Assembly: GCA_020718265.1 (NCBI GenBank)
Contig: DYSM01000001.1
Location: 1-37,167, forward strand
DNA from: Draconibacterium orientale
GTDB lineage: Bacteria > Bacteroidota > Bacteroidia > Bacteroidales > JAADGE01
DNA: 37,167 nt
Direction: 5' to 3'
Shown: positions 14,829-37,167 of the stretch, in pieces
Layout: each line of letters opens with the position of its first letter
Position numbering within the stretch: position 1 is the stretch's first letter
Program-made: the position numbers and the translations under genes
The notes under the pieces: generated by a model
The model's database searches: none
What the model was told of the DNA's origin: nothing
The model's input: the letters and a program-made list of their open reading frames with translations, nothing else

Positions 14829-14829
14829 T

Positions 14830-14864
14830 GTCCTTTTTGCACTCTGATTTTTTTTAGAAATTTG
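14830..14864 (+). promoter_or_regulatory. copy C of the bipartite motif
   Basis: gtcctttttgcac at 14830 starts 2 nt after the tape-measure stop. gaaatttg lies at 14857-14864 (27-nt offset) and the ATG at 14883. Confidence 0.55.
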
Positions 14865-14882
14865 TATTAAAGTTATTGAGTT

Positions 14883-15323
14883 ATGTTGATGTATCTTCTC
14901 TTTTCAATTCTGTTGCAAGTTCCTGTGGATGTTGCTTCACCCGAAATGAAACTTCTTGATTATGGTTCCTTCGGAATTATGCTTGCATTTTCGATTTTCA
15001 TTATTCGTTACCAAGCGAAAAAAGATCAACAACTACAAGAAAAGCGCGATATTGATTATAAGAATGCAATGGACAGGGCATATAAGGAACGCGACGAAGC
15101 TATCAAGGAAATGAATGTTATTTCTACGCGATTCATTGACCACATGGAGGATAATACGAAGCAGAACTTATCTGTAATTGTTGAAAATACTAAGGTAATT
15201 TCCAAGTTTTCAGATAGTTTCGATATGTTCTCGAAATCGAACGTCTTACTTGCATCTAGCATCGAAAAACTAACAGTGATAACGGAATTCTACTCGAAAA
15301 AATTCAACGATATACATAAGTAA
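14883..15323 (+). CDS. hypothetical membrane/coiled-coil protein
   Basis: 146 aa with a hydrophobic N-terminus and then a charged helical region. The stop overlaps the next ATG. Confidence 0.55.
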   Translation: MLMYLLFSILLQVPVDVASPEMKLLDYGSFGIMLAFSIFIIRYQAKKDQQLQEKRDIDYKNAMDRAYKERDEAIKEMNVISTRFIDHMEDNTKQNLSVIVENTKVISKFSDSFDMFSKSNVLLASSIEKLTVITEFYSKKFNDIHK

Positions 15324-17146: not shown

Positions 17147-17149
17147 TTT

Positions 17150-17183
17150 GTCCTTTTTTAGAAGTCTTACTTCCTTAATTTTG
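17150..17183 (+). promoter_or_regulatory. copy D of the bipartite motif
   Basis: gtcctttttta at 17150 starts 4 nt after the stop at 17146. A perfect TAnnTTTG (taattttg) lies at 17176-17183 and the ATG at 17191. Confidence 0.55.
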
Positions 17184-17190
17184 CATCAAT

Positions 17191-18744: not shown

Positions 18745-18745
18745 T

Positions 18746-20056
18746 ATGGGAAGGGTAATAGATTATACACCAATTGAAAATAACGGACATTCGGTATATG
18801 GAACGAAGTCTGGGTCGGAAGGGCTTATAGATTTGGCAAAGGCGGCAAGGATTGCGAATGACATTGTGACGGTTGGCACAGGAGGCGATTACACTACATT
18901 AAGACTTGCTTTTGCAGCAGGTAAGAAAAAAATTAAGCTAATTTCCAATGTAACAGAAACAAGTGCAGGAACCTCAGGCAGTGACATCTTCATCGACGGT
19001 AACGGATTTTCTCTATCAACAGCTTATCAATTAATAAGTTCTGGAACTGTATCTATTTTAAATTTGAAAATTATAAATTCTTATATTGGGGCTTTTTCAA
19101 CGCCACTATTCAAACTAACATCATTTATTTTTGAGAATGTCAGTTTAACCTTTTCAGCAGTAGTCGAACAATTTGGAATATCCGCCGCTAATGCTTATAT
19201 AGTTAACTCCACTATGACATTCTCAAATATGAATGTCAGAAACTATTTCTCATCTTATTTCTTATTAAGAGATTGCTATATTGTGTTATCTGTTGGAACA
19301 TATAATAATAATATTTTTTACTGTTCAGGGAATTCTTGTATAATTGATAATGTTATAGTTTCCGGCAGTAATACCTTAGCTGTATGGTCGAATTTTTTCT
19401 TCTTTCTTACGGCAACTTATAATAGTATTAATAATCTTAATGCGATTTCGAGCAATAAATTCCCTATATATGCTACCGGTTTGAGATTATCGAACAGTAA
19501 AAACTTGGCTTTTTTGGGGGCTGGGATTACAATTGAATCAATATTGAACTGTTCTAATATTCAAATGTCTATACAAGGAAGTATCACAAATTGTAGCATA
19601 ATCAATAGCTCGAACTTAACTTTTCAGAATGTTAATTTACTAACTGTAACAAATCTTAATATAGTTAATTCAACAGGTATTACAATCAAAAGTGCATCTA
19701 ATGCTTTTTTTAATATCTCATTATTGAAAATAACAAATTCAAATTTCACATTTTCAAATGTATCAGCTTATCTCAGAATCGCGCAGGCTCTTGTCAATAA
19801 CTCTGCAACGTCTGCTCTTACAGTTGATACTAATAATTCTATTTTTTCATCAGTAGTTGTAACAAATACGATTACTAATAACGGAGATTATAATTCGTTC
19901 CGAGATTGTTCGGCGAAGGCCATAGTCAATGCACTCGGCGCAGACTATGCAATTTTCGAGAACGTTACTTATGTTACCACTGCCACAGATAACAGCGGAG
20001 GTACCGCACGCCAGTGGGTTCCGACAACAGATGCCGGCGGAAATTATTTGAAATAA
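18746..20056 (+). CDS. putative tail fibre/tailspike (parallel beta-helix-like, receptor-binding candidate)
   Basis: 436 aa, very N/S/T/I-rich, with short recurring units (NxS/NxT, 'VTNLNIVNSTGITIKSASN', 'ITNSNFTFSNVS') typical of right-handed beta-helix repeats. It is the last large gene of the tail module. By eye it is AT-richer than its neighbours. Confidence 0.55.
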   Translation: MGRVIDYTPIENNGHSVYGTKSGSEGLIDLAKAARIANDIVTVGTGGDYTTLRLAFAAGKKKIKLISNVTETSAGTSGSDIFIDGNGFSLSTAYQLISSGTVSILNLKIINSYIGAFSTPLFKLTSFIFENVSLTFSAVVEQFGISAANAYIVNSTMTFSNMNVRNYFSSYFLLRDCYIVLSVGTYNNNIFYCSGNSCIIDNVIVSGSNTLAVWSNFFFFLTATYNSINNLNAISSNKFPIYATGLRLSNSKNLAFLGAGITIESILNCSNIQMSIQGSITNCSIINSSNLTFQNVNLLTVTNLNIVNSTGITIKSASNAFFNISLLKITNSNFTFSNVSAYLRIAQALVNNSATSALTVDTNNSIFSSVVVTNTITNNGDYNSFRDCSAKAIVNALGADYAIFENVTYVTTATDNSGGTARQWVPTTDAGGNYLK

Positions 20057-20066
20057 TTTTAATAAA

Positions 20067-20555
20067 TTGAATATGAAACTTATCAATACCACAACAGGTA
20101 CAGTTATTGAAATCACCGACGTAAATAACACTCTCAATCGCGTTGTTTTCGTTACGCAAGAATTCAACAGCGTGAAATCGCCTTGTAAGGCGAATTCTCA
20201 TACTTATAATAATTTCAGCATCAATGCAGCTTATAACATTGAATCAGCCTTGATACGACTATGTTACGAAGCATTGAAATTGGAAGTATTTCCGACGTTC
20301 AAAGTATCGGAAAATGAGAACTGGCTGTTCCCGTTGCGTCCGATCCGCGTGTATATTCCGGACGGAATTGTGAAATCGGCAACAAACTCCGGCAATGCGC
20401 TCGGTCAATTGCTTATGGCAATGCAGTCGGATATTCCGGCTGAGTTCCGAAAAGCGACAGAAACAGGTGTAGTAACTTATCTTGAATTACTATTGCCGGA
20501 ACATCGCGCAATTATGGAGGCATATCCAGAAATTATTTTAGAAGAAAAAGCTTAG
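20067..20555 (+). CDS. hypothetical protein
   Basis: 162-aa ORF following the fibre gene. It converges on the integrase stub with a 4-nt overlap. Confidence 0.5.
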   Translation: MNMKLINTTTGTVIEITDVNNTLNRVVFVTQEFNSVKSPCKANSHTYNNFSINAAYNIESALIRLCYEALKLEVFPTFKVSENENWLFPLRPIRVYIPDGIVKSATNSGNALGQLLMAMQSDIPAEFRKATETGVVTYLELLLPEHRAIMEAYPEIILEEKA

Positions 20556-20815
20556 AACTTACCGGCTTTTCTCATGATTTGCGAGTTCGCAGTCTTTTTA
20601 GCGTGCAGGGCATAGATACTTGTTATTTCAATAGAGCTATGCCCTGCTTGCTTTGCCACTTCATCATGGCTTATGCCGTCACGAAGCATCTGGATTATAC
20701 CTGTATCGCGCAGGCTATACATGTGATATTCAGGTTTCAGCTTCAAATCTTTTCGGAGCTGTAACCATCTGCGACCTGCGTATTTTGTCTGTTTTTCATT
20801 CATACCTGGTTTCAT
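20552..20815 (-). pseudogene. tyrosine recombinase (phage integrase) C-terminal fragment only
   Basis: The 87-aa ORF contains 'YSLRDTGIIQMLRDG...AKQAGHSSIEITSIY'. This is the box II region, with an H-x-x-R-like element, the GHS histidine and the catalytic Tyr. The roughly 200-300 N-terminal residues of a normal integrase are absent in all three upstream frames. Confidence 0.7.
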
Positions 20816-20917
20816 TTTGTCCGAAAACGCACATTGATTTTCAGCATATTATAAATGCAACTTTTGTAATATTTGCATCATTTTGTGCCGATTTCATGCC
20901 GATATTGCGGCTATAAT

Positions 20918-21271
20918 CTACTGTTTTTCAGTAGGCTTAATGATATTGTCAGTCAATATCTTCTTAATTTCGATTACTTCTTTCAATACTTTCCGAATAT
21001 CAGTTTCTTGCTGTATAGACTTCTTATACTCTGCGATTTCTTCGCTAACAATGCTTTTTTGTTCTGTTGTTTCATATTCATTCGGGTATTCTTGAAATAA
21101 TTCTTCAAGGCTCATTGGTAGTAACTTAGAGAGTATTTCTATCTTTTCGCTCGGCATCCTTCTTTCGTTTATATAATTCTGCTATGTGCTGGCTGAAATC
21201 TCAAGTACCTCACTTATTTGTTTTGACGTATAGCGTTTGAATTTTACAACCTTCTCAATATTAGCGGTATT
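20918..21271 (-). pseudogene. XRE-family HTH repressor-like gene interrupted by an in-frame TAG and lacking an ATG
   Basis: Hand translation of the minus strand gives NTANIEKVVKFKRYTSKQISEVLEISAST*QNYINERRMPSEKIEILSKLLPMSLEELFQEY... This is a contiguous HTH_3-like domain with TAG at 21182-21184. Only the distal 79 aa (20918..21157) form an ATG-initiated ORF. Confidence 0.55.
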
Positions 21272-21275
21272 CTAT

Positions 21276-21343
21276 TTTACTTAATTTAGAATAATTCTTA
21301 ATTAAGTAAATATTTACTTTAAATTTTGTTTTTACTTATTTAA
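21276..21343. promoter_or_regulatory. operator-like TTTACTT(A/T) repeats in the divergent intergenic region
   Basis: An 11-bp inverted repeat tttacttaatt (21276-21286) / aattaagtaaa (21300-21310). Direct copies of tttactt lie at 21313 and 21331. The region sits between the decayed repressor (-) and the early genes (+). Confidence 0.45.
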
Positions 21344-21385
21344 TTCCGTATTTAGCGATTAATTTAAACGTTTAAATTATTTCGC

Positions 21386-21748
21386 ATGGACAAAGAAAAT
21401 GAAAATAATCGGATTTGTAAAAGCGATTACACATCTGAAAATCTTCCGCCGCTTATTGCCGGGAAATATTTTGGTATCATTCCGCCGGATGGACGTAAGG
21501 ACATGTTCAAATGGCTCAACCAATTCTTAGGGGAAATGGGCGAAATGAACTATCAGACTTGGAAAGGACGGTTTCATAATCCGAAATTAATTCCGACAAA
21601 AAAACAAGGAATGATTATCGCAATAATGGAAGATGCGCTTGCGCTGCAACTGTATAAGTTAGCAGAATCAACAACAAAAGTAATATCCGATGCTTCGGAA
21701 TTGCAAGTGAAAATAAGAAAAGCAATATCCGAGTATGAGCAAGAGTAA
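21386..21748 (+). CDS. hypothetical early protein
   Basis: 120-aa ATG ORF, the first + strand gene after the divergent region. Confidence 0.55.
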   Translation: MDKENENNRICKSDYTSENLPPLIAGKYFGIIPPDGRKDMFKWLNQFLGEMGEMNYQTWKGRFHNPKLIPTKKQGMIIAIMEDALALQLYKLAESTTKVISDASELQVKIRKAISEYEQE

Positions 21749-21899
21749 GCACGGGAACAGCTGCGAAATTTGCGGCGAAAAAGGCTTTTGGTCAGCCTTA
21801 TTACAAAAGCTATTGTGCGACAAGCATCGTGCTAAGTTAATTTTTGCTTTGCTGTTTGGCGGAGGCGGTATTGCACTATTTTTTATATATGTATTATGA
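21735..21899 (+). CDS. unlisted 54-aa protein with a C-terminal TM helix
   Basis: Hand translation gives MSKSKHGNSCEICGEKGFWSALLQKLLCDKHRAKLIFALLFGGGGIALFFIYVL*. It overlaps the preceding stop, and its own stop overlaps the next ATG (ATGA at 21896). Confidence 0.35.
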   Translation: MSKSKHGNSCEICGEKGFWSALLQKLLCDKHRAKLIFALLFGGGGIALFFIYVL

Positions 21900-22072
21900 G
21901 CATCAAGGAACTTATCAATCAGATTATCAGTGAAATTCCAATTTATAGGTACCTGGAAACATCCTATGAGTTAGCTCGCATTGAGTTGCAGGCTGACTTG
22001 AAAAAGTGGGAGATTACCTATAATCTATACCTTGAAAAACAAGGTATTAATCCAAAAGAATATGAAGAATAA
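21896..22072 (+). CDS. unlisted 58-aa hypothetical protein
   Basis: Hand translation gives MSIKELINQIISEIPIYRYLETSYELARIELQADLKKWEITYNLYLEKQGINPKEYEE*. It fills an otherwise unassigned gap and overlaps the next ATG (22062). Confidence 0.35.
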   Translation: MSIKELINQIISEIPIYRYLETSYELARIELQADLKKWEITYNLYLEKQGINPKEYEE

Positions 22073-22574
22073 CATCCATAATATTATGTTATTCAAAGGA
22101 GTTACGCTTGAAGAAGCTGCAAATGCTCTCAAAGTTACACGCAAATTTCTATTGCGTATTATACAGGGAGAGCTTATTCCTGACTTGACTCTTGCAATCA
22201 ATATCAGCGAAGTTCTTGCTGAATCGGTCAATTCTATTTGGTCTAAAAATGAACAAGCCTCTTTACTTGTCATATTGAGCCGAGTTGCCAACATTGCAAA
22301 TGTGCCTGATTTTTCAATGAAATCGAAACTTCGTAAACGCTATCTTGTTTCTTCAAGATACGCTTTTTGTTATATAGCAAATCGCGATACCAAAGCTTCG
22401 CTTTCTGAAATTGGAAATCTTATAGGAATAGACCATTCGACTGTGCTATACGGCTTGAAACATAGCTTTTTGCCAGAAGTTTCTGAAATTATTACGACTT
22501 ACTATGCCTTATTCTCACAACCAAACACGCAAAAAAATGAAACCTCTCAAAATAAAGTCTCAAAACACGCATAA
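22062..22574 (+). CDS. DNA-binding protein with an N-terminal HTH plus a DnaA C-terminal (domain IV)-like HTH, putative replication initiator/origin binder
   Basis: 'VTLEEAANALKVTRKFLLRIIQGE' is an XRE-like HTH. 'RYAFCYIANRDTKASLSEIGNLIGIDHSTVLYGLKH' matches the DnaA domain IV signature (..IG..fg.DHsTVlha). The track start at 22032 is TTG, so ATG 22062 is preferred. Confidence 0.6.
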   Translation: MKNNIHNIMLFKGVTLEEAANALKVTRKFLLRIIQGELIPDLTLAINISEVLAESVNSIWSKNEQASLLVILSRVANIANVPDFSMKSKLRKRYLVSSRYAFCYIANRDTKASLSEIGNLIGIDHSTVLYGLKHSFLPEVSEIITTYYALFSQPNTQKNETSQNKVSKHA

Positions 22575-22860
22575 CTATTTCGTATTTGTGAAAGCCGATT
22601 CCGAGATTGATGCAGAATGGGCAAATATATTTGAGCCAAAAGAAATTGAAGCTCAAATCGACGAAAAAAAGGCTGTTATCAGAATTGAAGATTATCACAA
22701 AATCCATTTCAGCATGTTGCAATTGGTAGAATTCATTATCAAACTCTGTTTCGGAGTTGATATTTCCGAATTCAAAAAGTTACTTGTTAAGAAATACGGC
22801 TCTGAAATTCAGACACATGATATTTATTTTGGCTTATACAAATTAATTGAAATCGAATGA
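22537..22860 (+). CDS. hypothetical early protein
   Basis: The track ORF starts at 22504. The in-frame ATG at 22537 (MKPLKIKS...) reduces the overlap with the upstream gene. The stop overlaps the primase ATG. Confidence 0.45.
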   Translation: MKPLKIKSQNTHNYFVFVKADSEIDAEWANIFEPKEIEAQIDEKKAVIRIEDYHKIHFSMLQLVEFIIKLCFGVDISEFKKLLVKKYGSEIQTHDIYFGLYKLIEIE

Positions 22861-25800
22861 TACAGGTATCCACCATAAACCACTTGAAATCAATCGTCAA
22901 GATTGAAGATGTCGTCGGCGATTTCATTAATTTGCGGCGAAAAGGCACAGCACATCTCGGACTTTGTCCGTTTCACAACGAAAAAACCCCGTCATTCTCG
23001 GTATCTCCGGCAAAAGGCATCTACAAATGTTTCAGTTGCGGCGAAAGCGGCAATGCGTTCAGTTTCGTAATGAAACACGAAGCAATGAATTATCCGGAAG
23101 CAGTGAAATGGATTGCGAAAAAATATAACGTTCCCGTTGCAGAATCAGAATCCTCCGACGATGCCGCTCGCCGAACGCACAAGGAAAGCCTTGCAATTGT
23201 TACTGAATTTGCACAGAAAGTCTTTCTACATTCGTTCGATAAATCCGCAGCACACCAATATATGAGCATTGAGCGCGGTTTCAATGCTGAAATTTTGCGC
23301 GATTTCAATATCGGCTATGCGAAAGATGATTGGCAATTCCTGAGCGTTGCCGCACTTAAACGCGCATACAAAGCTGAATTATTGACGGAAAGCGGACTTT
23401 CCGGAACCAAGAAAACAGACGGCTCACTATATGACCGTTTCCGAAATCGCGTTATGTTTCCGTATTTCGATTTATCCGGAAAAGTTATCGGTTTTACAAG
23501 CCGTATTCTTACCGCCGACAAAAGCGAAGCGAAATACATAAACAGCTCAAATACAGAGCTTTTCGACAAAAGCAAAATACTTTTCGGCTTATTTCAGGCA
23601 AAAAAAGCGATTGTTGCCTACGATGAGTGCTTCTTAGTTGAAGGCAATACCGACGTGATGCGTTTCCATCAGCTCGGCATTGCGAACACCGTTGCCACAT
23701 CCGGAACCGCTCTGAGCACTATGCAAGTGAAACTGATTCAACGCTTCACATACCACGTGATTCTGCTGTTCGATGCCGATAATGCCGGCAAAAATGCGGC
23801 AATGAAAAGCATTGACAAGTTTCTTTCCGAAGATTTCGTGGTTAATGTTTGCATCCTGCCCGAAGGCGAAGACCCGGACAGCTTCGGTAAGTCGCGCACA
23901 AAGGATGAAGTGTTGAATTATATTCTTGAAAACAAAGTTGATTTCTTTGAATTTCAGGCGAAAACGCTGTTGAACGGCAGCGTTTCCGCAAAAGATATTG
24001 TGAAAGTTGCCGAAACCATTGCAACCTCAATTTCATTCATTGACAATGAAGCCGAACGTATTATTTTGAGAAAAAAACTTTCTCAAAAATTCGGCATCGA
24101 AGAAAAGCTCCTTGACAAAAAAACTGCAAAACTTTCCGAAGAAAAAGAATGCGTTATAGGCTTTTTTGCCTGGGAAGAAGCGAAGGAAGCTATCAAGGAA
24201 AAGAATGTTGCAAATCTGGTTTTTTCTAATGATTTCGTTATTGAAAAGCATTTCAATAACGAACTTAACACTGTCGGATTCACAGAAAATACAGCTTATT
24301 CATATTTCAATGAGCTGCATAAGCTTACGAAAAATATTAGCGTTTCAGAATCGCTTGGGCAATTTGATTTGATTGATACAAACGGAGAAACGAAGCTTTT
24401 GAAACTTTTCAAGCAACTTATTTCAGTTGGGTTTAACCTTGAGATTACATATTTCAATGAGATCGACGATAAAGAAGATACTACTTCATTCATTGACTTC
24501 TATTTTGAACTGCAAATAGGTTCAATCAAAGGTAGTAATGATAAGTCTAAGAAATCAGCAATTGAGAAATCCGCAGAAATAATATCATTCTTATCTGAGA
24601 CTGAGCGGATGTTAAAAATTAATCATGTTGTTTCAAGATTCAAAAGTAATGGATATGTCATCAATCAAGGCGATTTCAAAAAGATCGTTTCAGATTATCT
24701 CAAAGAGAACCAACGTTCCGATAATAAGGAAGTTACCATATATGCGAATAATCCGCACGGATTGACGAAAGAACAGCTCGAATCGCTTGACAAATACGGC
24801 TTGTTTGAGAAAGATAATCAGTTGTTTTTCGAGGAAAAAAGCGGCGGTTCTGTTCCTTATTCTAACTATATTATTCGCCCGCTCTTCCATATAGAAAGCA
24901 TCAACGAAACGCGCAAACTATTTGAAATCATAAATTTCAAGAACGAAAAACAGATTATCGAAGTTGATATTGAAAGCATGGTCAAGATTGACAAATGGCA
25001 AATATTCTGCGAAAGTAAAGGCAATTTCCTTTTTTGGGGAGACAAAACGAAATTCACTCGATTGAAACAACGCCTGTATGCCGATACGAAATTTTGCAAG
25101 AATATCGAAAACTTAGGCTGGCAAAAGCAAGGTTTTTGGGCATGGGCGAACGGAATTGTGTATGAACGTCAGTTTGTGCCTGTGGACAGTTACGGAACTG
25201 TAACCGTCCTAAATACGAATTATTACATCCCTGCATTTTCGGAGTTGTACAAACATGATAGAACAGTATTCAAGGCTGAGCGCAAATTCGTTCGCAAACC
25301 GCAAGACATTTCGTTTTTTCAATGGTCTGAAAAGTTCATTTCTGTCTATGGTGAAAATAGCAAACTATCTACCTGCGCACTGCTTACGTCTGTGTTTTCG
25401 GATTATATTTTTTCGATTACTGGGAACTTGCCTTTGGTAAATTTTTTCGGTGTGAAAGGCACCGGAAAAACAGAACATGCCAAGAGTCTGCTTAACTTTT
25501 TCGGAGATGAGCAGAACCTGCTCAACATTCACAAAGGCACGGAATATGCCGCCGCAGTGCACATGGAGAATTTCAAAAACGCATTTGCATTGATTGACGA
25601 GTATAAGAATTCGTTAGACATCAATAAGTTGGAATATCTGAAATCTATCTATAACCGCGACGGACGTGTGCGCGGTTCAATCAAGGCAGGAATTAAGACC
25701 GAAACGACACAAGTTAATTCCATGGCATTACTGTGCGGTCAGGAAATGCCGACGGCGGATGTCGCCTTGTTTTCGCGTCTTGTTTTCCTCCCTTACTATA

Positions 25801-26594
25801 ATCCGGAATATTCGCAAACGCAAAAAAACAAGTTCAATGAACTGAAAGCGATTGAGAAAAAAGGATTAACACACTTAGTTGAAGAGCTGCTCGGATTCCG
25901 TTCGCTTATTGAAAAAGAATACGAACAAACGTTCTACGATGTTGAGAAGGATTTGTCGGAGCAAGTATCTTCGTCGGTGGACGGGCGATTGATTAAGAAT
26001 TATGCGATTCTTATAGCGACATTCAAGATATTGGAATCGCGCGTGAGTGTCGCGTTCAAATACGAAGATGTGTTTCAACTCTCACTGAATCGCATTCGTG
26101 AGCAATATACGATTATGAACAGCTCCAACGAAGTCAGTGCATTCTGGGAAAGCCTTGTATCTCTTGCCGAACGCGGCATAATTCGACACGGCGATAATTA
26201 CCGAATCATTGACGAAATCTTCATCACCTTGCTTGTGAAGAATGGTGCATCAACGGAAGAAAAGAGATTTGATTTCTCAGGCTACAAAAACGGAAGTAAG
26301 CAAATATTGTATCTGAAAATGAGCACAATCTATAATTATTATGCCGAACTGTGCGCAAAAACGCGACAAGAAATTATGCCGAAACGCTCGCTTGAATATT
26401 ACATCGAACACAGCAAGACCTTCTTAGGTCGCTCGAAAAGCACACGCTTCGACAACGTAACCACAGGTTGGGCATTTGACTACGATATGCTCGGCATTGA
26501 CCTCAGCAGCCGTAACGATACACTGCAACCATATCACGAAACTCCGCAACCACTTCCTAACTATGAACCAAAAGATGATAATTCACCATTCTGA
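22857..26594 (+). CDS. DNA primase / P-loop helicase fusion protein (DnaG-type zinc finger + TOPRIM + C-terminal NTPase)
   Basis: CHC2 zinc finger '[30 protein letters not shown]'. TOPRIM 'LVEGNTDVM...TSGTALS...[13 protein letters not shown]'. Walker A '[12 protein letters not shown]' and Walker B 'FALIDEY' lie in the C-terminal half. 1245 aa. Confidence 0.9.
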   Translation: [1245 protein letters not shown]

Positions 26595-26741
26595 TATTGA
26601 ACAAATTACACACGGAAGCCTGTTCAGCGGCATCGGAGGCTTTGAACTTGCCGCAGAGCAGCACTCGGGAACGTCATAGTTCCAGAAGTAGCAGATAGAA
26701 TTTTTCAATCAATTATTTTCAAACAATACATTTTTCAATCA
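26563..26741 (+). pseudogene. C5-cytosine DNA methyltransferase remnant (motif I fused out of frame to motif X, core deleted)
   Basis: One frame gives MNQKMIIHHSDIEQITHGSLFSGIGGFELAAEQHSGTS*, carrying motif I FxGxGG. The frame starting at 26667 gives GNVIVPEVADRIFQSII..., the C-terminal GN(A/S)V.P.VA motif X. Nothing between them encodes the PC catalytic motif IV or the target-recognition domain. Confidence 0.65.
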
Positions 26742-27547
26742 TGCAAAAATCAAAAATCCAATGGACAGATTACACGTGGAATCCCGTGTGGGGTTGCTTG
26801 GGCGGATGCAACTACTGCTATGCACGCGGCATAGCGAAGCGATTTGCGAAACCTATTGCAGAGCGTGAGGCTACGCTTAACAAAAGAAAAAACATATTTG
26901 AAGATGTAGCGAGATTTACACCTACAATGTTAGACCATAGACTGTTTGCGGAATTTCCGAAAAAACCTTCGCGTGTGTTTGTTAATTCAATGTCTGACCC
27001 GGCATTTTGGAACAGAACTATACGCCGAGCAGTTCTTGACCGCATTCATTTCAATGAGTCTCATTCTTTTCAGATGCTTACGAAATTCCCGCAAATATTA
27101 GAGTTTGATTATTACCCGCCTAATTTATGTTTTGGCACCTCGTGCGAGAATCAGGAATCGGCAGATATGCGCATTCCGGCATTATTGGAACGTCCGGCGG
27201 CTTTGCATTTCGTTTCTTTCGAGCCGCTTACGGGGCATGTGAATCTGAAAACTGAATGGACAGAAAAAATTAAATGGGTAATCATCGGCGGCATGTCAGG
27301 CACGAAAGCCACACCGATGCGCATGGAGTGGGCTGAATCACTAATAGAAGAGTGCGAGATGTTCAATATACAGGTATTCTTCAAGAGTTGGGGCAAGTAT
27401 GTTCCGATAGAGAATCTGACTGTAAAAGAGCGCAATGCAATTATGTTGAAACCGCCAAAAATAACCGGCGAATATTGTTACAATGCCTCTGAACAAGTCA
27501 GCTATGAGCACGTGAGAGGGTTTGAGTATCGTAATTTCCCAAAATAA
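26741..27547 (+). CDS. DUF5131 / phage Gp37-Gp68 family protein (three-Cys motif, here CxxxCxxC)
   Basis: The N-terminus 'IQWTDYTWNPVWGCLGGCNYCYARG' matches the family signature (IEWTD.TWNP..GC....GC..CYA). 268 aa. Confidence 0.8.
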   Translation: MQKSKIQWTDYTWNPVWGCLGGCNYCYARGIAKRFAKPIAEREATLNKRKNIFEDVARFTPTMLDHRLFAEFPKKPSRVFVNSMSDPAFWNRTIRRAVLDRIHFNESHSFQMLTKFPQILEFDYYPPNLCFGTSCENQESADMRIPALLERPAALHFVSFEPLTGHVNLKTEWTEKIKWVIIGGMSGTKATPMRMEWAESLIEECEMFNIQVFFKSWGKYVPIENLTVKERNAIMLKPPKITGEYCYNASEQVSYEHVRGFEYRNFPK

Positions 27548-27560
27548 TATATCTGAAATC

Positions 27561-27821
27561 ATGGAAAAAAAAAAAATGAGAAACGTTGTGATTATTCCCG
27601 AAGAAAAAATCGATCATCCACAGCATTACGGCGGTGCTGATAATGTGTATGAAGCAATCAATGTTATTGAAGCTTGGCAATTGAGCTTTTGCCTCGGCAA
27701 TGTGCTGAAATACATTTCGCGTGCCGGAAAGAAGGGTCCCACTCTTGTAGACCTCCGAAAAGCGCAATGGTATTTGGTGCGGGAAATCAGACGCATAGAA
27801 AAGGATTCAATTAGCGCCTAA
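27561..27821 (+). CDS. DUF3310-family phage protein
   Basis: 'HYGGADNVYEAINVIEAWQLSFCLGNVLKYISRAGKKG...DLRKAQWYL' matches the DUF3310 pattern (HY.....e.i.vie......gn.iKYi.Rag.K....dl.KA..Yl). ATG 27561 is followed by an A12 run, so ATG 27577 is an alternative start. Confidence 0.7.
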   Translation: MEKKKMRNVVIIPEEKIDHPQHYGGADNVYEAINVIEAWQLSFCLGNVLKYISRAGKKGPTLVDLRKAQWYLVREIRRIEKDSISA

Positions 27822-27832
27822 CGCAAAATAAT

Positions 27833-27864
27833 AGCTTACGTGCCGAAATATCCGCACGTAAGCT
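27833..27864. terminator. perfect 11-bp stem hairpin at the end of the early operon
   Basis: agcttacgtgc - 10-nt loop - gcacgtaagct, 12 nt after the stop at 27821. There is no clean T tract on the + strand, so its terminator function is uncertain. Confidence 0.4.
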
Positions 27865-27921
27865 AAGAAAAAGTTAAAAAGTTTAATAACGGATAAAAGT
27901 ATCTAAATAGCACAAAAGCAA

Positions 27922-27951
27922 GGCATTAACGGCTATTATATGTTATCGGTA
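27922..27951. repeat. left arm of the imperfect inverted repeat bracketing ORF 27976..28461
   Basis: ggcattaacggctattatatgttatcggta. The reverse complement of the right arm is ggcattacggctattatttgccgttatcggta. Shared blocks are ggcatta, cggctattat and ttatcggta. Confidence 0.65.
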
Positions 27952-27975
27952 TTTTTATCATAATATCAATCTTTT

Positions 27976-28461
27976 ATGAAAATTAATATAGAAAATCAAA
28001 CAGTTTTGCAAGCAAATATATTAGTAGATGCAATCGAAAATTTTTTTTTAAAAAAATCGGCAGAGTTTGAAAAACTAACTTATTATTCTTCTTCTTATGA
28101 AATATCAAAAAGAACATTTAACGAATACAATTTAGATGAAATGATAAGGAACTCCGATATATTCGCTTTTTCTGCAATGTTAATCAAAGATTTAGTTGAA
28201 CTAACAATTTATAAAAAATTATACAAACTTAATTTAGAAATAACGAAAGAATATCATAATAAAATCGGGGCATTACAACATAGAGAATGTCATTCTGAAA
28301 TAGAATTTGTTGAAAAAGTTTATAAATTCATTAAACCAATAATTGCTAAAAAATTAGAACTATATTTAATCAAATATAATTTCGTAGAAAAATGTGTTTG
28401 GATTGATGAATTTAAAAGTGATTTTTCAAGTTTAATAAAATTATTTGATAATCCTATTTGA
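27976..28461 (+). CDS. hypothetical protein, very AT-rich moron-like gene
   Basis: 161-aa ORF, K/I/N/E/L/Y-rich and predicted helical. It has its own upstream spacer and a strong terminator downstream, and is flanked by inverted repeats. No motif was recognised. Confidence 0.55.
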   Translation: MKINIENQTVLQANILVDAIENFFLKKSAEFEKLTYYSSSYEISKRTFNEYNLDEMIRNSDIFAFSAMLIKDLVELTIYKKLYKLNLEITKEYHNKIGALQHRECHSEIEFVEKVYKFIKPIIAKKLELYLIKYNFVEKCVWIDEFKSDFSSLIKLFDNPI

Positions 28462-28462
28462 T

Positions 28463-28494
28463 TACCGATAACGGCAAATAATAGCCGTAATGCC
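28463..28494. repeat. right arm of the inverted repeat bracketing ORF 27976..28461
   Basis: taccgataacggcaaataatagccgtaatgcc begins 2 nt after the stop codon. Confidence 0.65.
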
Positions 28495-28520
28495 CATACT
28501 AAGCTCACTCCACTATCTTC

Positions 28521-28550
28521 AAGCCTCGCCAACTCGGCGGGGCTTTTTTT
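28521..28550 (+). terminator. rho-independent terminator
   Basis: aagcctcgcc - aactc - ggcggggctt 10-bp stem with one G-U pair. The terminal tt runs into a T tract through 28550 (nine consecutive T, 28542-28550). Confidence 0.8.
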
Positions 28551-28611
28551 GTGTATTTTGTTTTTGTAATTTTTGATATTTTTATTTTCGCGTTCAAATT
28601 ATAAAATTCGC

Positions 28612-28860
28612 CGGCTACACCGGCTACAGCTCCGACAAAATGTAAGTTGTTAATATTTAATATATTATATTAATTAGAATACTAATAACTGAAGCTATTC
28701 TGAAGCCGCTGTAGTTTTAGTAATTAAATACAAACATGTCTGAAATAGTTTTGTAGTTTTTTTAAGTTTCAAAACTACAGGTTTTTTACATGTATTTCAA
28801 ATGTCTAAGCGTTTTTAATCCTTATTTTCAGATAGTTGTATTTTTGTAGTTCTTGTAGCT
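28612..28860. repeat. TGTAG-core repeat field in ORF-free DNA (iteron/operator candidates)
   Basis: Forward TGTAG at 28710, 28752, 28845 and 28854. Reverse CTACA at 28615, 28624 and 28775. Tandem cggctaca at 28612 and 28621. A 9-bp palindrome tgtagtttt (28752-28760) / aaaactaca (28771-28779) is followed by ggtttttt. Confidence 0.6.
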
Positions 28861-29029
28861 GGCGTAGGTGCACTTTTAAACTATTTTATAGAAACTAAAA
28901 TAAATGTTTTTGTTGGTGTTTTAAGTCTAATAATTACTACACAATAAATCTATATTTTTGGGGATCGTTACATACAACTAAACTTGTTAATAACTCACAA
29001 TAACTTTGCGTTTTGAGATGCTTATTTAT

Positions 29030-29059
29030 GCGTAAATTTGATTTGAATTTCAAATACGC
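29030..29059 (+). promoter_or_regulatory. Bacteroidota-type -7 box (TAAATTTG) embedded in an imperfect palindrome
   Basis: taaatttg at 29033-29040 matches TAnnTTTG. TTTG elements lie upstream at 29005 and 29012. The arms gcgtaaatttga / tcaaatacgc overlap the box. The ATG is at 29065. Confidence 0.5.
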
Positions 29060-29064
29060 AAAAC

Positions 29065-29523
29065 ATGATAATTCAAGCCACCATTCCTGTTCGCCCACAC
29101 TTGAAGAAGTATATCGTCAAGAAGTTCAAGGCGCAACACATCATCAAGATCTCACACCACAGTATTTTCGGTAAGTTAGTTGTGAAAAGCTTTTCGGAGC
29201 ACTTTGCGCGTGCGCGTGAAACTTCCGCTTTTCGCTCATCCATTTTCATTGAGTTCGACCATGAATTTGAACTCACACTCTCTGCCGGTAATATATACGA
29301 CTTCAATTCGTTGGTCGAAGATATCTATCGGCAGGAGCTAATTCAATATGTGATGCATGAAAAATTATGGAATCCGCACTTCGAGCGAAAGCGTTCAATT
29401 GAGACGTTCAATTCGTATTTTGGCATCACCGAAGATGACATTGCACTTGAAACCATCATAAAATTCATGCAAAGAAGTGCGGAGGACAGGCATTACTTTG
29501 ATTTTCAGAACTATAAAAAATAA
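29065..29523 (+). CDS. hypothetical protein (first gene of the head operon)
   Basis: 152-aa ATG ORF following the ORF-free region. Confidence 0.55.
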   Translation: MIIQATIPVRPHLKKYIVKKFKAQHIIKISHHSIFGKLVVKSFSEHFARARETSAFRSSIFIEFDHEFELTLSAGNIYDFNSLVEDIYRQELIQYVMHEKLWNPHFERKRSIETFNSYFGITEDDIALETIIKFMQRSAEDRHYFDFQNYKK

Positions 29524-29569
29524 AATACGTTTTGTCCTCTGCTATTATTCATTATCTATACATTACAAA

Positions 29570-30040
29570 ATGAGTATCTCCCAAAAAAAAAGAAACAGTT
29601 TTCAGCCAGCAATTAGAATTTACTATGCCGAACAAAAAAGAACAGACCCGGACATCGAACAACTGACCGATAACGGAAACGGAAACTTCTCAGCGGTATT
29701 TGCGCCTGCAAAAGATTGGAAGCAGATTTTTGCAACTATCGGTTCAATCTCAGTTTCTACAAAAGCAAGCCAAAGCGACGAAGGCAAAATTTATGAGCAC
29801 GAAATTACATTTTCTGCTCCGGGCGATGACATTGAAACGCTCTTAGAATTAGAATCGCTTCTTAATATACCTCTTATAATAAGGTGTGATTTTGCAGAAG
29901 TCGTTCCGAAATTATTCGGAGACCTGATGAATTTCTGCTTTCTTGAATTTGATAAAACTAACGAAGGTTATATCTCCGGAACTGATTTAATTTTGAAGTT
30001 CGCATCAGAGCACGATGCACTCACCCTTATAACCGATTAG
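29570..30040 (+). CDS. hypothetical protein
   Basis: The track ORF starts at 29477, inside the preceding gene. The in-frame ATG at 29570 (MSISQKKRNS...) follows the stop at 29523 and a degenerate gtcctctgc box at 29534. Confidence 0.5.
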   Translation: MSISQKKRNSFQPAIRIYYAEQKRTDPDIEQLTDNGNGNFSAVFAPAKDWKQIFATIGSISVSTKASQSDEGKIYEHEITFSAPGDDIETLLELESLLNIPLIIRCDFAEVVPKLFGDLMNFCFLEFDKTNEGYISGTDLILKFASEHDALTLITD

Positions 30041-30047
30041 AAAAAAC

Positions 30048-30082
30048 GTCCTTTTTTCATACTGTATGAATTCTGAATTTTG
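30048..30082 (+). promoter_or_regulatory. copy E of the bipartite motif
   Basis: gtccttttttcat at 30048, 8 nt after the stop at 30040. gaattttg lies at 30075-30082 (27-nt offset) and the ATG at 30117. Confidence 0.5.
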
Positions 30083-30116
30083 CAATTTCTAATAGTGTAT
30101 CACTAATAATTACTGC

Positions 30117-35402: not shown

Positions 35403-37029
35403 GAAGTTCTATATGAACAAGGCGCAACGGTATGTGCATACTATTGCAGCTCGAAATAATTATATCATTGCCTCTCGGCGGTTCGGAAAGTCCGAAGGCA
35501 TTATCATGCCGCGATTATTACAGAATGTGCAGTCCATGCCGCGCTCATCGGGCGGGCTTATCGGCTCAACCTATAAGCAAGTTCTCACGCGAACTTTGCC
35601 CGCTACACTATTTGCATTGGAACGCCTTGGCTATCGCGAAGGGATTCATTATTTTGTAGGGCGAAAAGCCCCTAAGACATCCGGATTTGCCGATCCTTTT
35701 ATAATGCCGCGTTCTTGGGATTATTTCATTCATTGGTATAATGGTTCGGTTAATCCGATTATCTCTCAAGATATTCCGTATTCGTCCAACTCTCTGACAA
35801 TGGATTACTTAATCGGAGACGAGGCGAAAACACTGAACCGCGATAAGCTAATCAATGAAACACTTCCTGCTGTTTCCGGCTTGCCGCAATTCAAGAATAA
35901 TCCTTGGCATACAGGCGTGATGTTCGTTACAGACATGCCCACGAACAAACGCGGATTATGGATATTGAAGGAAGAGCAGAACATGGACAAAGAACTGCTG
36001 ACTGTGTTAGTAGGCATGATGCACAAGTATTTCCGCATGAAACTCGCAAATACAGGTTATGATACCAAGCCTATATTAGCATTGCGAAATCAGATAGACT
36101 TATTCCGAAAAGAACTTACATTGTATCAAGTATTTAATATCCTTGACAACCTTGAAATTGTCGGCGAGCGTTATGTTGCCGACATGCACCGAAATTTAAC
36201 CCCGTTCGTGTTCAGAACAGGGCTATTATCACAGCAAATCAAAACCACAGAAGGCGCATTTTACGGCGCGTTGGATGAAAAAAAACATTACTATGATGCT
36301 GTGAATATTTCAAAACTGAACAAATTCCGCTCGGATTACGGCGATATTGATTGGAAAGTTGCTACAAATCATTCATTCTCATGCGAAGATGATACCGACA
36401 TCAATCACAGCTTACCGTTAGTCATTGCTTCTGATACCAATATCAATATCAACTGGTTAGTTGTTGGACAAGCGGACTACCAAGAGAATAGGCTTAACAC
36501 ATTGAAATCATTCTTTGTCAAGTCTCCTGCGATGTTGCCGGAAGTCGTTAAGAAATTCACTGAATATTATTCGAGCCTCCCAAATAAGTCAGTCATATTC
36601 TATTATGACCACACATTCTTACAAGGTCGCTCAGGTAATTCAACAGAGACATTCTACCAAACTATATCGAACGAGCTTACAAAAGTCGGATGGATTGTAA
36701 CAGAACAATACATTGGTCAAGCCCCGAAGCACGATGATAAGCACAAGGACATTGATGATGCTCTCAAGGGCAGACGCGGATTGTTACCTATGTTTAATCA
36801 TTCTAACAATGAAGACTTGCTTACGGGCATGGAGAACACAGGGACACGCATATCGCCAAACGGTTGGGGCAAAGACAAATCAGGAGAGAAGACAGAAGAT
36901 TCTTCTGAAGATCCAGTTGAACATCGCACCGACGGCGGCGATGCTTGGGATACTTTGTTCATTGGTTGTAACAATTTCAGAGTGTCGTCGGTACATTCGC
37001 ATTTGTCGTTAAGCAATATGTTTCAATAA
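35383..37029 (+). CDS. terL: terminase large subunit
   Basis: Walker A 'ASRRFGKSEG', Walker B 'DYLIGDEAK', and a C-terminal nuclease-sized domain. 548 aa. ATG 35413 (MNKAQRYV...) is an alternative start that avoids the overlap. Confidence 0.88.
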   Translation: MDAPKCKKFYMNKAQRYVHTIAARNNYIIASRRFGKSEGIIMPRLLQNVQSMPRSSGGLIGSTYKQVLTRTLPATLFALERLGYREGIHYFVGRKAPKTSGFADPFIMPRSWDYFIHWYNGSVNPIISQDIPYSSNSLTMDYLIGDEAKTLNRDKLINETLPAVSGLPQFKNNPWHTGVMFVTDMPTNKRGLWILKEEQNMDKELLTVLVGMMHKYFRMKLANTGYDTKPILALRNQIDLFRKELTLYQVFNILDNLEIVGERYVADMHRNLTPFVFRTGLLSQQIKTTEGAFYGALDEKKHYYDAVNISKLNKFRSDYGDIDWKVATNHSFSCEDDTDINHSLPLVIASDTNININWLVVGQADYQENRLNTLKSFFVKSPAMLPEVVKKFTEYYSSLPNKSVIFYYDHTFLQGRSGNSTETFYQTISNELTKVGWIVTEQYIGQAPKHDDKHKDIDDALKGRRGLLPMFNHSNNEDLLTGMENTGTRISPNGWGKDKSGEKTEDSSEDPVEHRTDGGDAWDTLFIGCNNFRVSSVHSHLSLSNMFQ

Positions 37030-37050
37030 GATACTTTGGGCGAATACCGT
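36996..37050 (+). repeat. copy 1 of an exact 55-bp direct repeat (spans the terL stop)
   Basis: ttcgcatttgtcgttaagcaatatgtttcaataagatactttgggcgaataccgt is identical to 37113-37167. Confidence 0.95.
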
Positions 37051-37112
37051 GCTATCCGCTATATCTTTTTTCGCATACTCAAAAAGGATAACGCTACTAT
37101 CACTATCGCAAT

Positions 37113-37167
37113 TTCGCATTTGTCGTTAAGCAATATGTTTCAATAAGATACTTTGGGCGAATACCGT
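37113..37167 (+). repeat. copy 2 of the exact 55-bp direct repeat, ending exactly at the window end
   Basis: The sequence is identical to 36996-37050. The period is 117 bp (39 codons). Confidence 0.95.

Follow-up and report, generated by a model that had tools for sequence, protein, structure and literature searches.

How a single, strikingly AT-rich gene came to lie in a phage genome, and what the inverted repeat around it represents, are the questions raised by positions 27922-28550 of the window, the 37,167-nt stretch of DNA that was analysed. An earlier note had taken the gene for an independently acquired one, either moved as a miniature element bounded by its inverted repeats or enclosed by these repeats in the mRNA. 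The evidence gathered here leads to a different account of the repeat: the segment 27822-28471 is probably an integron-type gene cassette in a phage genome, consisting of an attC-like site of ~129 nt and one cargo gene (Table 1).

Table 1. Features of the putative cassette and its surroundings, in window coordinates.
Feature	Position	Strand	Basis or remark
Putative integron-type cassette, whole, 650 bp	27822..28471	-	homology with L004/L273, divergence of L064
Full attC-like palindromic unit, TAACG-AAAATAATA ... TATTATATGTTA	27819..27945	+	all 129 positions of covariance model R1 matched
Perfect 12-bp hairpin	27832..27865	+	within the attC-like unit, overlapping its 5' arm
Outer left arm, GGCATTAACGGCTATTATAT	27922..27941	+	predicted 3' stems of the unit (helices 2, 3); model alignment, pair counts
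Predicted R-box half adjoining the unit, GTTATCGGTA; minus strand R'' = TACCGATAAC	27942..27951	+	inner left arm
Cargo ORF, 161 aa	27976..28461	+	21.8% GC; opposite to canonical cassette direction, so attC upstream
Predicted other R-box half, TACCGATAA; canonical cassette start TTATCGGTA	28463..28471	+	inner right arm
Truncated attC-like site, stem AATAATAGCCGTAATGCC	28472..28524	+	outside cassette; model positions 1-57 only
Intrinsic terminator, transcript end	28521..28550	+	outside cassette; replaces remainder of truncated site

The gene differs from its surroundings as sharply as had been judged by eye. The ORF at 27976-28461 has a GC content of 21.8% against 40.6% for the whole window, and in 486-nt sliding windows along the 37 kb (mean 40.6%, sd 5.1%) the global minimum (21.4%) coincides with it. 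Contigs with arrays of related sites have 25-29% GC, in agreement with the composition of the cassette and consistent with a foreign origin from low-GC donors. Independent acquisition, as proposed in the earlier note, is upheld by comparison with other genomes. A close phage relative (L064) is 95-97% identical over 13882-27815, diverges exactly at 27815, and has a different small ORF at the place of insertion, while the 654 bp from 27820 to 28473 recur in L004 at 91.3% identity between unrelated flanks; homology with L004 and L273 is limited to this segment. A second cassette, of 2049 nt and extending from (T)AACG to ...TGCTTATAAC, is present in L325 and L336 with 100% identity, again between unrelated flanks. 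The breakpoints of both shared cassettes fall exactly at G|TT, so that the pattern expected of a mobile unit, the same cassette in different contexts with a crossover at G|TT, is seen in two independent pairs only. The identical L325/L336 pair comes from sister samples and could be an assembly artefact, which counts against the integron reading. A blastn search of INPHARED phages with window 26700-30100 gave no match, and IMG/VR had no relatives of the 152-aa protein or of the protease. In the phage, the locus is a hot spot situated where the replication module meets the structural one.

The imperfect inverted repeat of ~30 bp is real. Its arms, 27922-27951 and 28463-28494, pair as GGCATT(A)ACGGCTATTAT.T(---)GTTATCGGTA with two gaps, and the local alignment scores 41, compared with a mean of 14.9 (sd 2.2, maximum 27) in 2000 shuffles, none of which reached 41. 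The right arm does begin 2 nt past the stop codon (TGA at 28459-28461, arm from 28463). As the bounds of a mobile unit running from 27922 to 28494, however, the repeat does not hold: the shared segment ends at 27820 and 28473, the unit is 27822-28471 instead, the end of the cassette falls in the middle of the right arm, and ~100 bp upstream of the left arm are included. The hairpin that had been taken to separate the gene from the early operon sits inside the cassette, in these ~100 bp. The hairpin itself exists (-20.6 kcal/mol, z = -6.05), but with 12 pairs (27832-27843 with 27854-27865) rather than 11 bp at 27833-27864, and it is restricted to the window copy, the middle four pairs being broken in the L004 copy.

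A MITE- or IS-derived miniature transposon ending in inverted repeats, or an inverton flipped between the repeats, would explain an inverted repeat around a single gene and an element present at different loci. Either is extremely unlikely, as the repeat does not bound the shared segment, target-site duplication is absent beyond the shared (T)AAC core, no copy is inverted relative to its unit, and the indels between the arms are unusual for invertons; the combination of terminal repeats at the element ends with a target duplication, by which a MITE or IS is recognized, was thus not found. The 37-kb window has no detected transposase or invertase, and no recombinase either, the last of which also counts against the integron reading. 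An IS200/IS605-type hairpin transposon was likewise rejected, having neither a second hairpin end nor an HUH protein here, and complementarity across the cargo being unexpected for such elements.

If the repeat does not bound the mobile unit, then its arms need another identity. The inner 10 bp (GTTATCGGTA / TACCGATAAC) are, as far as can be judged from sequence, the two halves of the R box of the cassette's recombination site; 27942-27951 complements 28463-28472 perfectly (10/10). The outer left arm appears to be the stem of the cassette's own palindromic site and the outer right arm the stem of a neighboring truncated site, and because this second stem is complementary to that of the cassette site, the repeat is extended to ~30 bp. 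The covariance model R1 matches the unit at 27819-27945 with 90.9 bits (E = 4e-16), the sole significant match in the window, while the truncated match at 28469-28524 has 15.9 bits (E = 7e-4 when searched within that stretch); the R1 search finds a single full unit and a single truncated one in the window. The truncated site has a direct repeat shared with 27819-27835, and it is here, directly after ...TAACG, that L004 departs from the window. The terminator beyond is as strong as first described (28521-28545, 10 pairs of which seven are G-C, then a T-run). The canonical attC top strand of the unit is the minus strand; read in this direction, the canonical order is TTATCGGTA..., the cargo, and then the attC-like site ending in G, with G|TT crossovers at 28472|28471 and 27822|27821.

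The same arms could be read at the level of RNA, the 5' UTR pairing with the 3' UTR so that the ORF is enclosed by a ~28-bp helix serving as an RNase III site or protecting the mRNA ends, with complementarity selected in the transcript. Such pairing, suggested in the earlier note, is physically possible: the MFE and centroid folds of 27900-28556 both pair the arms (z = -5.8), and the covariation in the unit stems is compatible with RNA structure. It is not conserved in the L004 copy, though, where the left arm is retained and the right arm is just 11 nt long, nor is it needed. The same complementarity rule applies in bacterial-like arrays despite their genes lying on the other strand, the recurrence of an identical cassette between unrelated flanks is left unexplained, and Rfam 15 has no match at gathering score in 27400-29300, L004, or L001, sub-threshold matches being driven by the terminator. 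An RNA element is very unlikely as the origin of the repeat.

The reading of the segment as an integron-type cassette draws on a family of palindromes to which the full unit belongs. Approximately 40 non-identical copies are present in metagenomes and viral contigs, mostly in co-oriented arrays between genes, with a unit length of 127-131 nt and end motifs spaced by 95-102 nt; the R1 model finds three to five co-oriented units per contig in L282, L270, L309, L302, L284, L276, L329, L289, L083, L095, and L265. The family structure has three helices with 21 pairs, 94.9% paired, and eight of the pairs have changed on both sides. Compensatory cells number 72, compared with 27.2 +/- 2.9 in shuffles (0/500 as high), and drop to 13 or fewer once the 3' partners are slid along. 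The family thus has the property by which attC sites are recognized, a conserved fold rather than a conserved sequence in an imperfect palindrome of ~57-141 nt.

A further property of attC is that the start of a cassette is complementary to its own site across the cargo. With a match defined as at most one mismatch in 10 nt, the reverse complement of GTTA+N6 (N6'+TAAC) is found beyond the cargo in 18 of the 30 units counted, compared with 2/30 for the upstream control and a permutation mean of 2.3 (maximum 6). The N6 varies between cassettes, and in the L282 and L095 arrays the complementary partners flank the ORF, not the unit. A cargo-specific N6 of this kind is, on the sequence evidence, the classical R'/R'' signature of integron cassettes. 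Across the family, TAAC and GTTA hardly vary. The full RYYYAAC-type consensus is seen in GCCTAAC at window 27816-27822 and in L095 unit 2, and the full GTTRRRY-type consensus in GTTAGGC, GTTAGAC, and GTTAGGT of L111 and L095; the halves of the window cassette (TACCGATAAC / GTTATCGGTA) agree with RYYYAAC/GTTRRRY only at TAAC/GTTA, a point against the integron reading.

Several other identities for the unit were considered and rejected. The motifs called box A/B are confined to this locus within the window and are not a genome-wide phage promoter; scans with box B (GTATCNNAATAGCACA and AAAAYAATA...AATAGCACAAA) returned mostly chance matches, and a 20-mer genome scan gave approximately the chance number, its Cyclobacteriaceae matches being uninformative. 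A replication origin with iterons for the DnaA_C-like protein (22032-22574) does not fit units that occur three to five times per contig in unrelated genomes. A leader belonging to the downstream ORF does not fit either, as the orientation of the arrays puts the canonical cassette reading on the opposite strand.

A related possibility, that of a regulatory cassette like the promoter-early stem-loops (PeSL) of phages (PMC2839356, PMC4122927), has more in its favor, and is unlikely nonetheless. The ~129-nt unit would then be a composite terminator/promoter in front of accessory genes, which would be exchanged through ordinary homologous recombination at conserved intergenic repeats with no dedicated recombinase, as happens in the hyperplastic regions of T4-type phages. 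The units of phage-like contigs do follow a stop codon and precede a small ORF of the same orientation, and a -10-like TATTAT/TATAAT is found 35-45 nt upstream of the ATG; in the window, TATTAT is at 27934-27939, 36 nt 5' of the ATG, and a promoter may lie inside the site at this position. The window has no integrase, and at the corresponding position the close relative carries a different gene. Chimeric units exist (L095 unit 2; in the window unit, the 5' arm), and identical frames of unit and R box surround different cargo (window and L004 compared with L264/L267; also L302, L317, and L325), as recombination within units would produce. In L264/L267, for example, the 10-mer of the right R-box half comes after a YopX gene that has the same type of unit as its frame. 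The chimeras would point to additional homologous recombination inside units, and with the shared frames they count against the integron reading. Homologous exchange does not, however, predict a cargo-specific N6 complementary across the cargo, nor the same G|TT breakpoints in two independent cassette pairs. Most units, moreover, are in bacterial-like arrays, where the ORFs run in the opposite direction and the unit comes after its gene, and an IntI-like recombinase adjoins one of the cassettes. A PeSL is recognized by a phage early promoter joined to a terminator stem-loop and repeated where close relatives differ by indels. Of these features, the stem-loop and the -10-like hexamer are present and the relative differs at this point, but no matching promoter consensus emerged and there is only one full unit in the window, so the unit is not a genome-wide regulatory motif.

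The recombinase in question is a tyrosine recombinase in L336 that ends 115 nt from the 2049-nt cassette and is co-oriented with the cassette ORFs. Integron integrases are tyrosine recombinases that carry an extra domain specific to IntI, lie next to attI, and recombine the folded bottom strand. For the L336 recombinase, the best NCBIfam match is the integron integrase TIGR02249 (E = 4e-61, 207 bits, below the curated cut-off of 265); it is as close to XerA (XerA_Arch, 203.7 bits, cut-off 220), and its alignment to IntI4 is split in two pieces. The sub-threshold score, the split alignment, and the equal proximity to XerA all weigh against the integron reading. In L340, one gene and then an R1 unit come after a homologue with 67% identity; in L344, a homologue with 63% identity has small ORFs behind it, with canonical RYYYAAC...GTTRRRY sites between them and complementarity across the ORF (GTTAGGTTC/GAACCTAAC). 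Homologues of the recombinase precede attC arrays in Bacteroidota chromosomes, and in the assemblies with arrays the recombinase genes are at contig ends. An IntI/XerA-like recombinase of the L336 type may move the cassettes, with the folded single strand as the presumed substrate of recombination.

The cargo gives few clues to its function. The earlier note recognized no motif in the 161-aa helical protein, and this stands: Pfam, PHROG, PADLOC, a PDB sequence search, and Foldseek all gave no match, the genome collection searched has no member of the ORF family, and an exact look-up of the window protein returned no record. The protein belongs to a very small family, and AlphaFold2 models it as a helical bundle (pLDDT 86.7). 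Other cassettes carry N6_N4 DNA methylases, a His-Me restriction nuclease, and YopX, and phage-borne cassettes with comparable cargo have been described (PMC9892861); some of the cassette cargo, whether methylases, nucleases, or ORFans such as the 161-aa protein, may act in defence or counter-defence. The window ORF runs in the direction of all phage genes, away from the site, and has a terminator of its own. This orientation, the reverse of that in canonical cassettes, counts against the integron reading; the ORF would probably be transcribed by read-through or from the -10-like TATTAT within the site.

In the proposed mechanism, the site is an imperfect palindrome closed by an R box (N6'-TAAC / GTTA-N6), with two further stems and a variable middle of ~75 nt, and the cassette would move by site-specific recombination at the conserved G|TT. 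Because recombination at this point puts one R-box half on each side of the cargo, the split R box would be what was reported as the inner 10 bp of the inverted repeat. The predicted junction of a circular cassette is ...TACCGATAA|CGCAAAATAATAGC... and that of the empty site is ...TTAGCGCCTAA|CGGCAAATAATAGCC...; no circular form was seen, and the viral contigs searched did not contain the empty site TTAGCGCCTAACGGCAAATAATAG, the latter a further point against the integron reading. Likely donors would be low-GC Bacteroidota chromosomes, or phages of such hosts, with arrays of R1-type units downstream of an IntI/XerA-like tyrosine recombinase. The presence of the putative cassette in a Bacteroidota-type phage suggests that such phages and the chromosomal cassette arrays of their hosts exchange genes. 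A broader scheme is less likely than not. According to this scheme, a Bacteroidota lineage would have chromosomal integron-like platforms run by an XerA/IntI-like recombinase missed by current IntI models, and phages would have co-opted the ~129-nt sites for exchanging morons, with the cassettes systematically reversed and the site doubling as an upstream leader/promoter. The phages behind L083, L095, and L265 would keep arrays of three to four units, the (A/T)GCAC repeats spaced by 20 nt would bind an accessory factor, and the window cassette would be one snapshot of host-phage and phage-phage traffic.

Among known systems, integron cassettes and their attC sites are the closest. Isolated attC sites have been reported in virulent phages, including one infecting the flavobacterium Polaribacter (Qi et al. 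2023, PMC9892861), and CALINs are attC clusters without an integrase (PMC9892861; IntegronFinder 2.0, PMC9024848). Compared with these few reports from virulent phages (PMC9892861), the locus adds a distinctive site family, represented by ~40 further copies, together with a candidate clade of recombinases and two cassettes that each occur in different contexts, and it ties a phage hot spot to cassette arrays of the Bacteroidota, a phylum in which complete integrons are reported to be rare (PMC9024848). Cassettes and their cargo can be mined from Bacteroidota phages and genomes with the R1 model and the split-R-box rule. Like integron attC sites, phage CALINs included, the family has one structured imperfect palindrome of ~60-140 nt per cassette, in which nothing but the fold and the terminal motifs (..TAAC / GTTA..) is conserved. 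In both, the crossover is at G|TT, each cassette opens with bases that complement the beginning of its site, co-oriented arrays lie downstream of a tyrosine recombinase, and the cargo is made up of small ORFans, methyltransferases, and R-M parts. Unlike integron attC sites, the family is one homogeneous type of ~129 nt with a long conserved interior of three to four repeats ~20 nt apart ((A/T)GCAC..AAG..TTTCAA), and in many copies, that of the window included, the R box departs from RYYYAAC/GTTRRRY beyond TAAC/GTTA. The recombinase found with it runs in the same direction as the cassettes and scores under the curated IntI threshold, the ORFs of phage contigs are reversed so that the site is upstream of the gene like a leader, and the window has one full and one truncated site in place of an array.

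Vibrio cholerae repeats (VCRs), the repeats of a sedentary chromosomal integron, are a species- or lineage-specific family of highly similar attC sites of ~125 nt that separate many ORFan cassettes. The family described here resembles them as a homogeneous attC-like family between cassettes at whose arrays assemblies break, but its hosts belong to the Bacteroidota and its site sequences are unrelated to VCRs. The PeSL of T4-type phages are similar in being conserved intergenic stem-loop/promoter-like motifs beside ORFan genes at variable spots, with close relatives differing by gene replacement exactly at the motifs, and circular intermediates have been proposed for them (PMC2839356, PMC4122927). 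Their exchange, in contrast, is homologous recombination between short promoter/terminator motifs, without a cargo-specific split R box or a fixed G|TT crossover; they have no link to a tyrosine recombinase and are absent from bacterial chromosomal arrays. A phage moron is a gene made autonomous by a promoter and a terminator of its own, and is thus defined by expression signals. The window gene is similar to a moron as a single extra gene of deviant composition between functional modules, with its own terminator. While the acquisition of single accessory genes by phages is usually obscure, the window cassette appears to differ from morons in that the machinery of acquisition, and not only the expression signals, is visible in the sequence.

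The earlier note had described an AT-rich gene between imperfect inverted repeats of about 30 bp, with a hairpin upstream and a terminator downstream, and all four features were recovered by computation. ORF 27976-28461 has 21.8% GC against 40.6% for the window, and it holds the global minimum among sliding 486-nt windows (mean 40.6%, sd 5.1%). The inverted repeat (27922-27951 and 28463-28494) aligns with a score of 41 and two gaps, while the highest score among 2000 shuffles was 27 (14.9 +/- 2.2), and 0/2000 reached 41. The hairpin has a perfect 12-bp stem, and the terminator is a strong intrinsic one.

The repeats are not the ends of the element, as had been supposed. L004, a 1.8-kb metagenome contig identical to L273, matches window 27820-28473 at 91.3% identity and has nothing else in common with it; since this segment starts about 100 bp outside the left arm and stops 11 nt into the right arm, the arms cannot be its termini. 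The L004 copy has an unrelated 130-nt hairpin ahead of it and, behind it, a different terminator and a fragment of a dus-like gene, the latter suggesting a bacterial or prophage setting. From 13882 to 27815 the window is 95-97% identical to IMG/VR contig 3300000236_000003 (loci L001 and L064), which diverges abruptly past 27815 and has a different small ORF after DUF3310. The proposed independent gain of the gene is upheld by this close relative with another ORF at that place and by L004, which holds the cassette in other flanks. Two further contigs, L325 and L336, have a 2049-nt segment in common at 100% identity between completely different flanks, extending from (T)AACG at the unit end to ...TGCTTATAAC. 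The crossovers lie at the same two unit-relative positions in both pairs, these being the only two independent pairs and one of them coming from sister samples. Neither an empty site nor a circular form of the cassette was found.

The unit is the attC-like palindrome that fills the window stretch from DUF3310 to the ORF, with conserved ends (T)AACG-AAAAATAATA ... TATWATATGTTA. A search with this pair of ends as the pattern and a permitted spacing of 93-104 nt returned about 40 non-identical true units, whose ends are 95-102 nt apart, and a few obvious chance matches. Every unit folds into a long hairpin. An alignment of 39 units has a 21-pair structure (the TAAC/GTTA helix, a 10-bp helix and a 7-bp helix) that is 94.9% paired, with 8 of the 21 pairs varying on both sides; compensatory cells number 72, compared with 27.2 +/- 2.9 in shuffles (0/500 as high) and at most 13 with the 3' partners slid. 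The interior carries 3-4 repeats of the form (A/T)GCAC..AAG..TTTCAA, whose spacing of about 20 nt suggests candidate binding sites for an accessory protein; classical attC sites have no such interior repeats. The perfect 12-bp hairpin falls within the attC-like site and is peculiar to the window copy. At many loci 3-5 co-oriented units matching R1, the covariance model of the family, lie on one contig. Among the four units of the viral contig L083 (1242-1520 and 3734-3935), two lie ahead of almost identical copies of one small gene (MKAKLELSSIMSFGKKEIHIFENYDEKYFP...); one of these units is compound, with two unit types fused.

The sequence GTTA+N6 at the unit end (R box) recurs beyond the cargo as its reverse complement, N6'+TAAC, in 18/30 non-redundant units, compared with 2/30 upstream and a mean of 2.3 (maximum 6) for permuted 10-mers. 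N6 varies from cassette to cassette, and in the arrays of L282 and L095 it is the ORF and not the unit that lies between the complementary partners. Complementarity across the cargo is the feature by which integron cassettes were classically defined: because integron recombination falls at G|TT within the R box of the folded site, each cassette opens with bases complementary to the beginning of its own attC. The window pair (GTTATCGGTA and TACCGATAAC) is the inner 10 bp of the repeat. Read canonically, on the minus strand, the cassette runs from 28471 to 27822, starting with TTATCGGTA and followed by the antisense cargo, R'' TACCGATAAC (27951-27942), the attC-like site and the end ...TTTTGCG, which joins G|TTAGGC made by the end of DUF3310. 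Ahead of it, 28524-28472 corresponds to the 3' portion of a further site of this type, and since its stem GGCATTACGGCTATTAT is complementary to the stem of the cassette's site, the repeat of about 30 bp is made up of 10 bp from the split R box and about 20 bp from the stems of two neighboring sites. The earlier note had also proposed that the arms pair in the mRNA. They could do so, but this pairing is not kept in L004, and it leaves the array-wide complementarity rule unexplained.

Bacterial-like arrays (25-29% GC) carry ORFs of 200-700 aa on the strand where the unit comes after its gene, as in the canonical integron layout, with N6_N4 methylases, a His-Me restriction nuclease and a flavodoxin among the cargo. 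On phage-like contigs the small ORFs (72-180 aa) are reversed, with the site ahead of the gene. L264/L267 (1870-2420) has a unit and R box almost as in the window and L004 cassette, with a YopX gene as cargo. Three different gene sets lie inside identical GTTATAAGCA/TGCTTATAAC frames in L302, L317 and L325. Both cases reflect either a very homogeneous site family or replacement of cargo within a constant frame.

No recombinase was detected in the window. L336 encodes a 374-aa tyrosine recombinase whose gene ends at a distance of 115 nt from the 2049-nt cassette and is co-oriented with the three cassette ORFs; the spacer contains a GTTATAAG direct repeat. The best NCBIfam match of the recombinase is TIGR02249 integron integrase (207 bits, E = 4e-61, below the cut-off of 265), followed by XerA_Arch "tyrosine recombinase/integron integrase" (203.7 bits, below the cut-off of 220); XerC and XerD models score much lower. 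A PDB search placed XerA and IntI4 at the top, the IntI4 alignment being split in two. Homologues of 63-67% identity have housekeeping and T9SS-domain genes as neighbors, which places them on Bacteroidota chromosomes, and they are often at contig ends, as expected beside repeat arrays. In L340 one gene and then an R1 unit in canonical orientation come after the homologue. The small ORFs that come after it in L344 have canonical RYYYAAC...GTTRRRY sites between them and show the cross-ORF complementarity GTTAGGTTC/GAACCTAAC.

Most likely, the cassette would have been excised by an IntI/XerA-like recombinase from a low-GC array, in a host chromosome or another phage, and recombined into the phage at the G|TT of a site already present there. 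By analogy with integrons, these units would be the substrate of the recombinase, which would act on folded single strands. Chimeric units and identical frames with different cargo were also seen, sequence patterns which indicate that homologous recombination within units occurs as well, so a contribution from exchange like that of PeSL, the promoter-early stem-loop cassettes of T4-type phages (PMC2839356, PMC4122927), is possible. The cargo ORF is probably expressed by read-through or from a -10-like TATTAT (27934-27939), ending at the terminator.

Features of the window and of related loci
Feature	Position	Strand	Remarks
Full unit	27819-27945		R1 90.9 bits, E = 4e-16; next window match E = 0.18
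Truncated second unit	28469-28524		R1 model positions 1-57 only
Perfect 12-bp stem	27832-27843 / 27854-27865		-20.6 kcal/mol, z = -6.05
Interior repeats	window 27846-27920; L276 2291-2419; L282 12136-12264		(A/T)GCAC-N4-AAG-TTTCAA; AATAGCACAAAAG in window
R-box pair	27942-27951 / 28463-28472		GTTATCGGTA / TACCGATAAC
Terminator	28521-28545		followed by T-run
DUF5131 and DUF3310			directly upstream of cassette locus
S49 head protease			~1.6 kb downstream of cassette locus
Other recognizable window genes			tape-measure protein, amidase, DnaA_C/HTH protein, 1245-aa primase-helicase
Pentapeptide-repeat protein	503-1333		276 aa, PF00805, E = 6.5e-39
Hairpin in tape-measure gene	12649-12692	+	ATAATAGCCGGAGTTGCTG/CTGCAATTACGGCTTTTAT; R1 17.7 bits, E = 0.18
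HTH_3 and DnaA C-terminal DNA-binding domains	22032-22574		just upstream of primase-helicase
AT-rich non-coding stretch (500 nt)	28560-29065		tandem CCGGCTACA x2 (28611-28628); inverted ctgtagtttt / aaaactacag at about 28708-28783
Flavo-1 RNA (RF01705)	37041-37114	-	43 bits, gathering score 42; window end
Direct repeat (~50 nt)	36996-37047 / 37117-37167		cgcatttgtcgttaagcaatatgtttcaataagatactttgggcgaataccgt; brackets Flavo-1 RNA
Phage-like contigs with reversed ORFs			window, L004, L083, L095, L111, L265, L267, L296, L310
Stable 85-nt hairpin	L004 1-130		positions 1-135: -62 kcal/mol, z = -6.6; no match in Rfam search
dus-like fragment	L004 1201-1413	-	70 aa, resembles N-terminus of tRNA-dihydrouridine synthase
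Contig end of close relative	L001 7640-7715		GC-rich, structured-looking (ccaaagggtgcaagtccctgatgcgcggggtcgtgcccgaagcatagcaagtcgcaagggcg); no window counterpart; no Rfam match at gathering score

The statement that the 161-aa helical protein has no recognizable motif was borne out, as searches of Pfam, PHROG, PADLOC and PDB sequences gave no match. AlphaFold2 (8 sequences) predicts a confident helical bundle (pLDDT 86.7, pTM 0.79), for which Foldseek found nothing in PDB or BFVD (best E = 0.95 and 1.5, TM < 0.35). The family is tiny, with 4 clusters in 5.8 billion proteins and 5 representatives in 1.84 billion. Remoter homologues (72% and 48% identity) lie in rows of closely spaced genes that contain no repeat.

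All genes of the window, a tailed-phage genome, lie on the plus strand, and the Flavo-1 RNA points to a flavobacterial-type host. The direct repeat around this RNA may be terminal or packaging-related, and the non-coding stretch that separates the terminator from the following ORF is a possible origin or late regulatory region. The tape-measure hairpin resembles both stems of the attC-like unit without the unit interior, and may be a chance match, or a relic or secondary site. Pentapeptide-repeat proteins, one of which is encoded in the window, are a class that can include DNA mimics.

AttC sites and CALINs (attC clusters without an integrase) have been described in phages, for example in a Polaribacter phage, and some phage attC sites recombine with IntI1 (PMC9892861). 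Complete integrons are reported to be rare in Bacteroidetes (PMC9024848). Compared with these known systems, the sites here form one homogeneous family of about 129 nt with a repeat-bearing interior, the R box is non-canonical beyond TAAC/GTTA, the associated recombinase is co-oriented and scores below the IntI threshold, and the ORFs are reversed in phages. Because of these four differences, the window element is provisionally assigned as a variant that works like an integron cassette.
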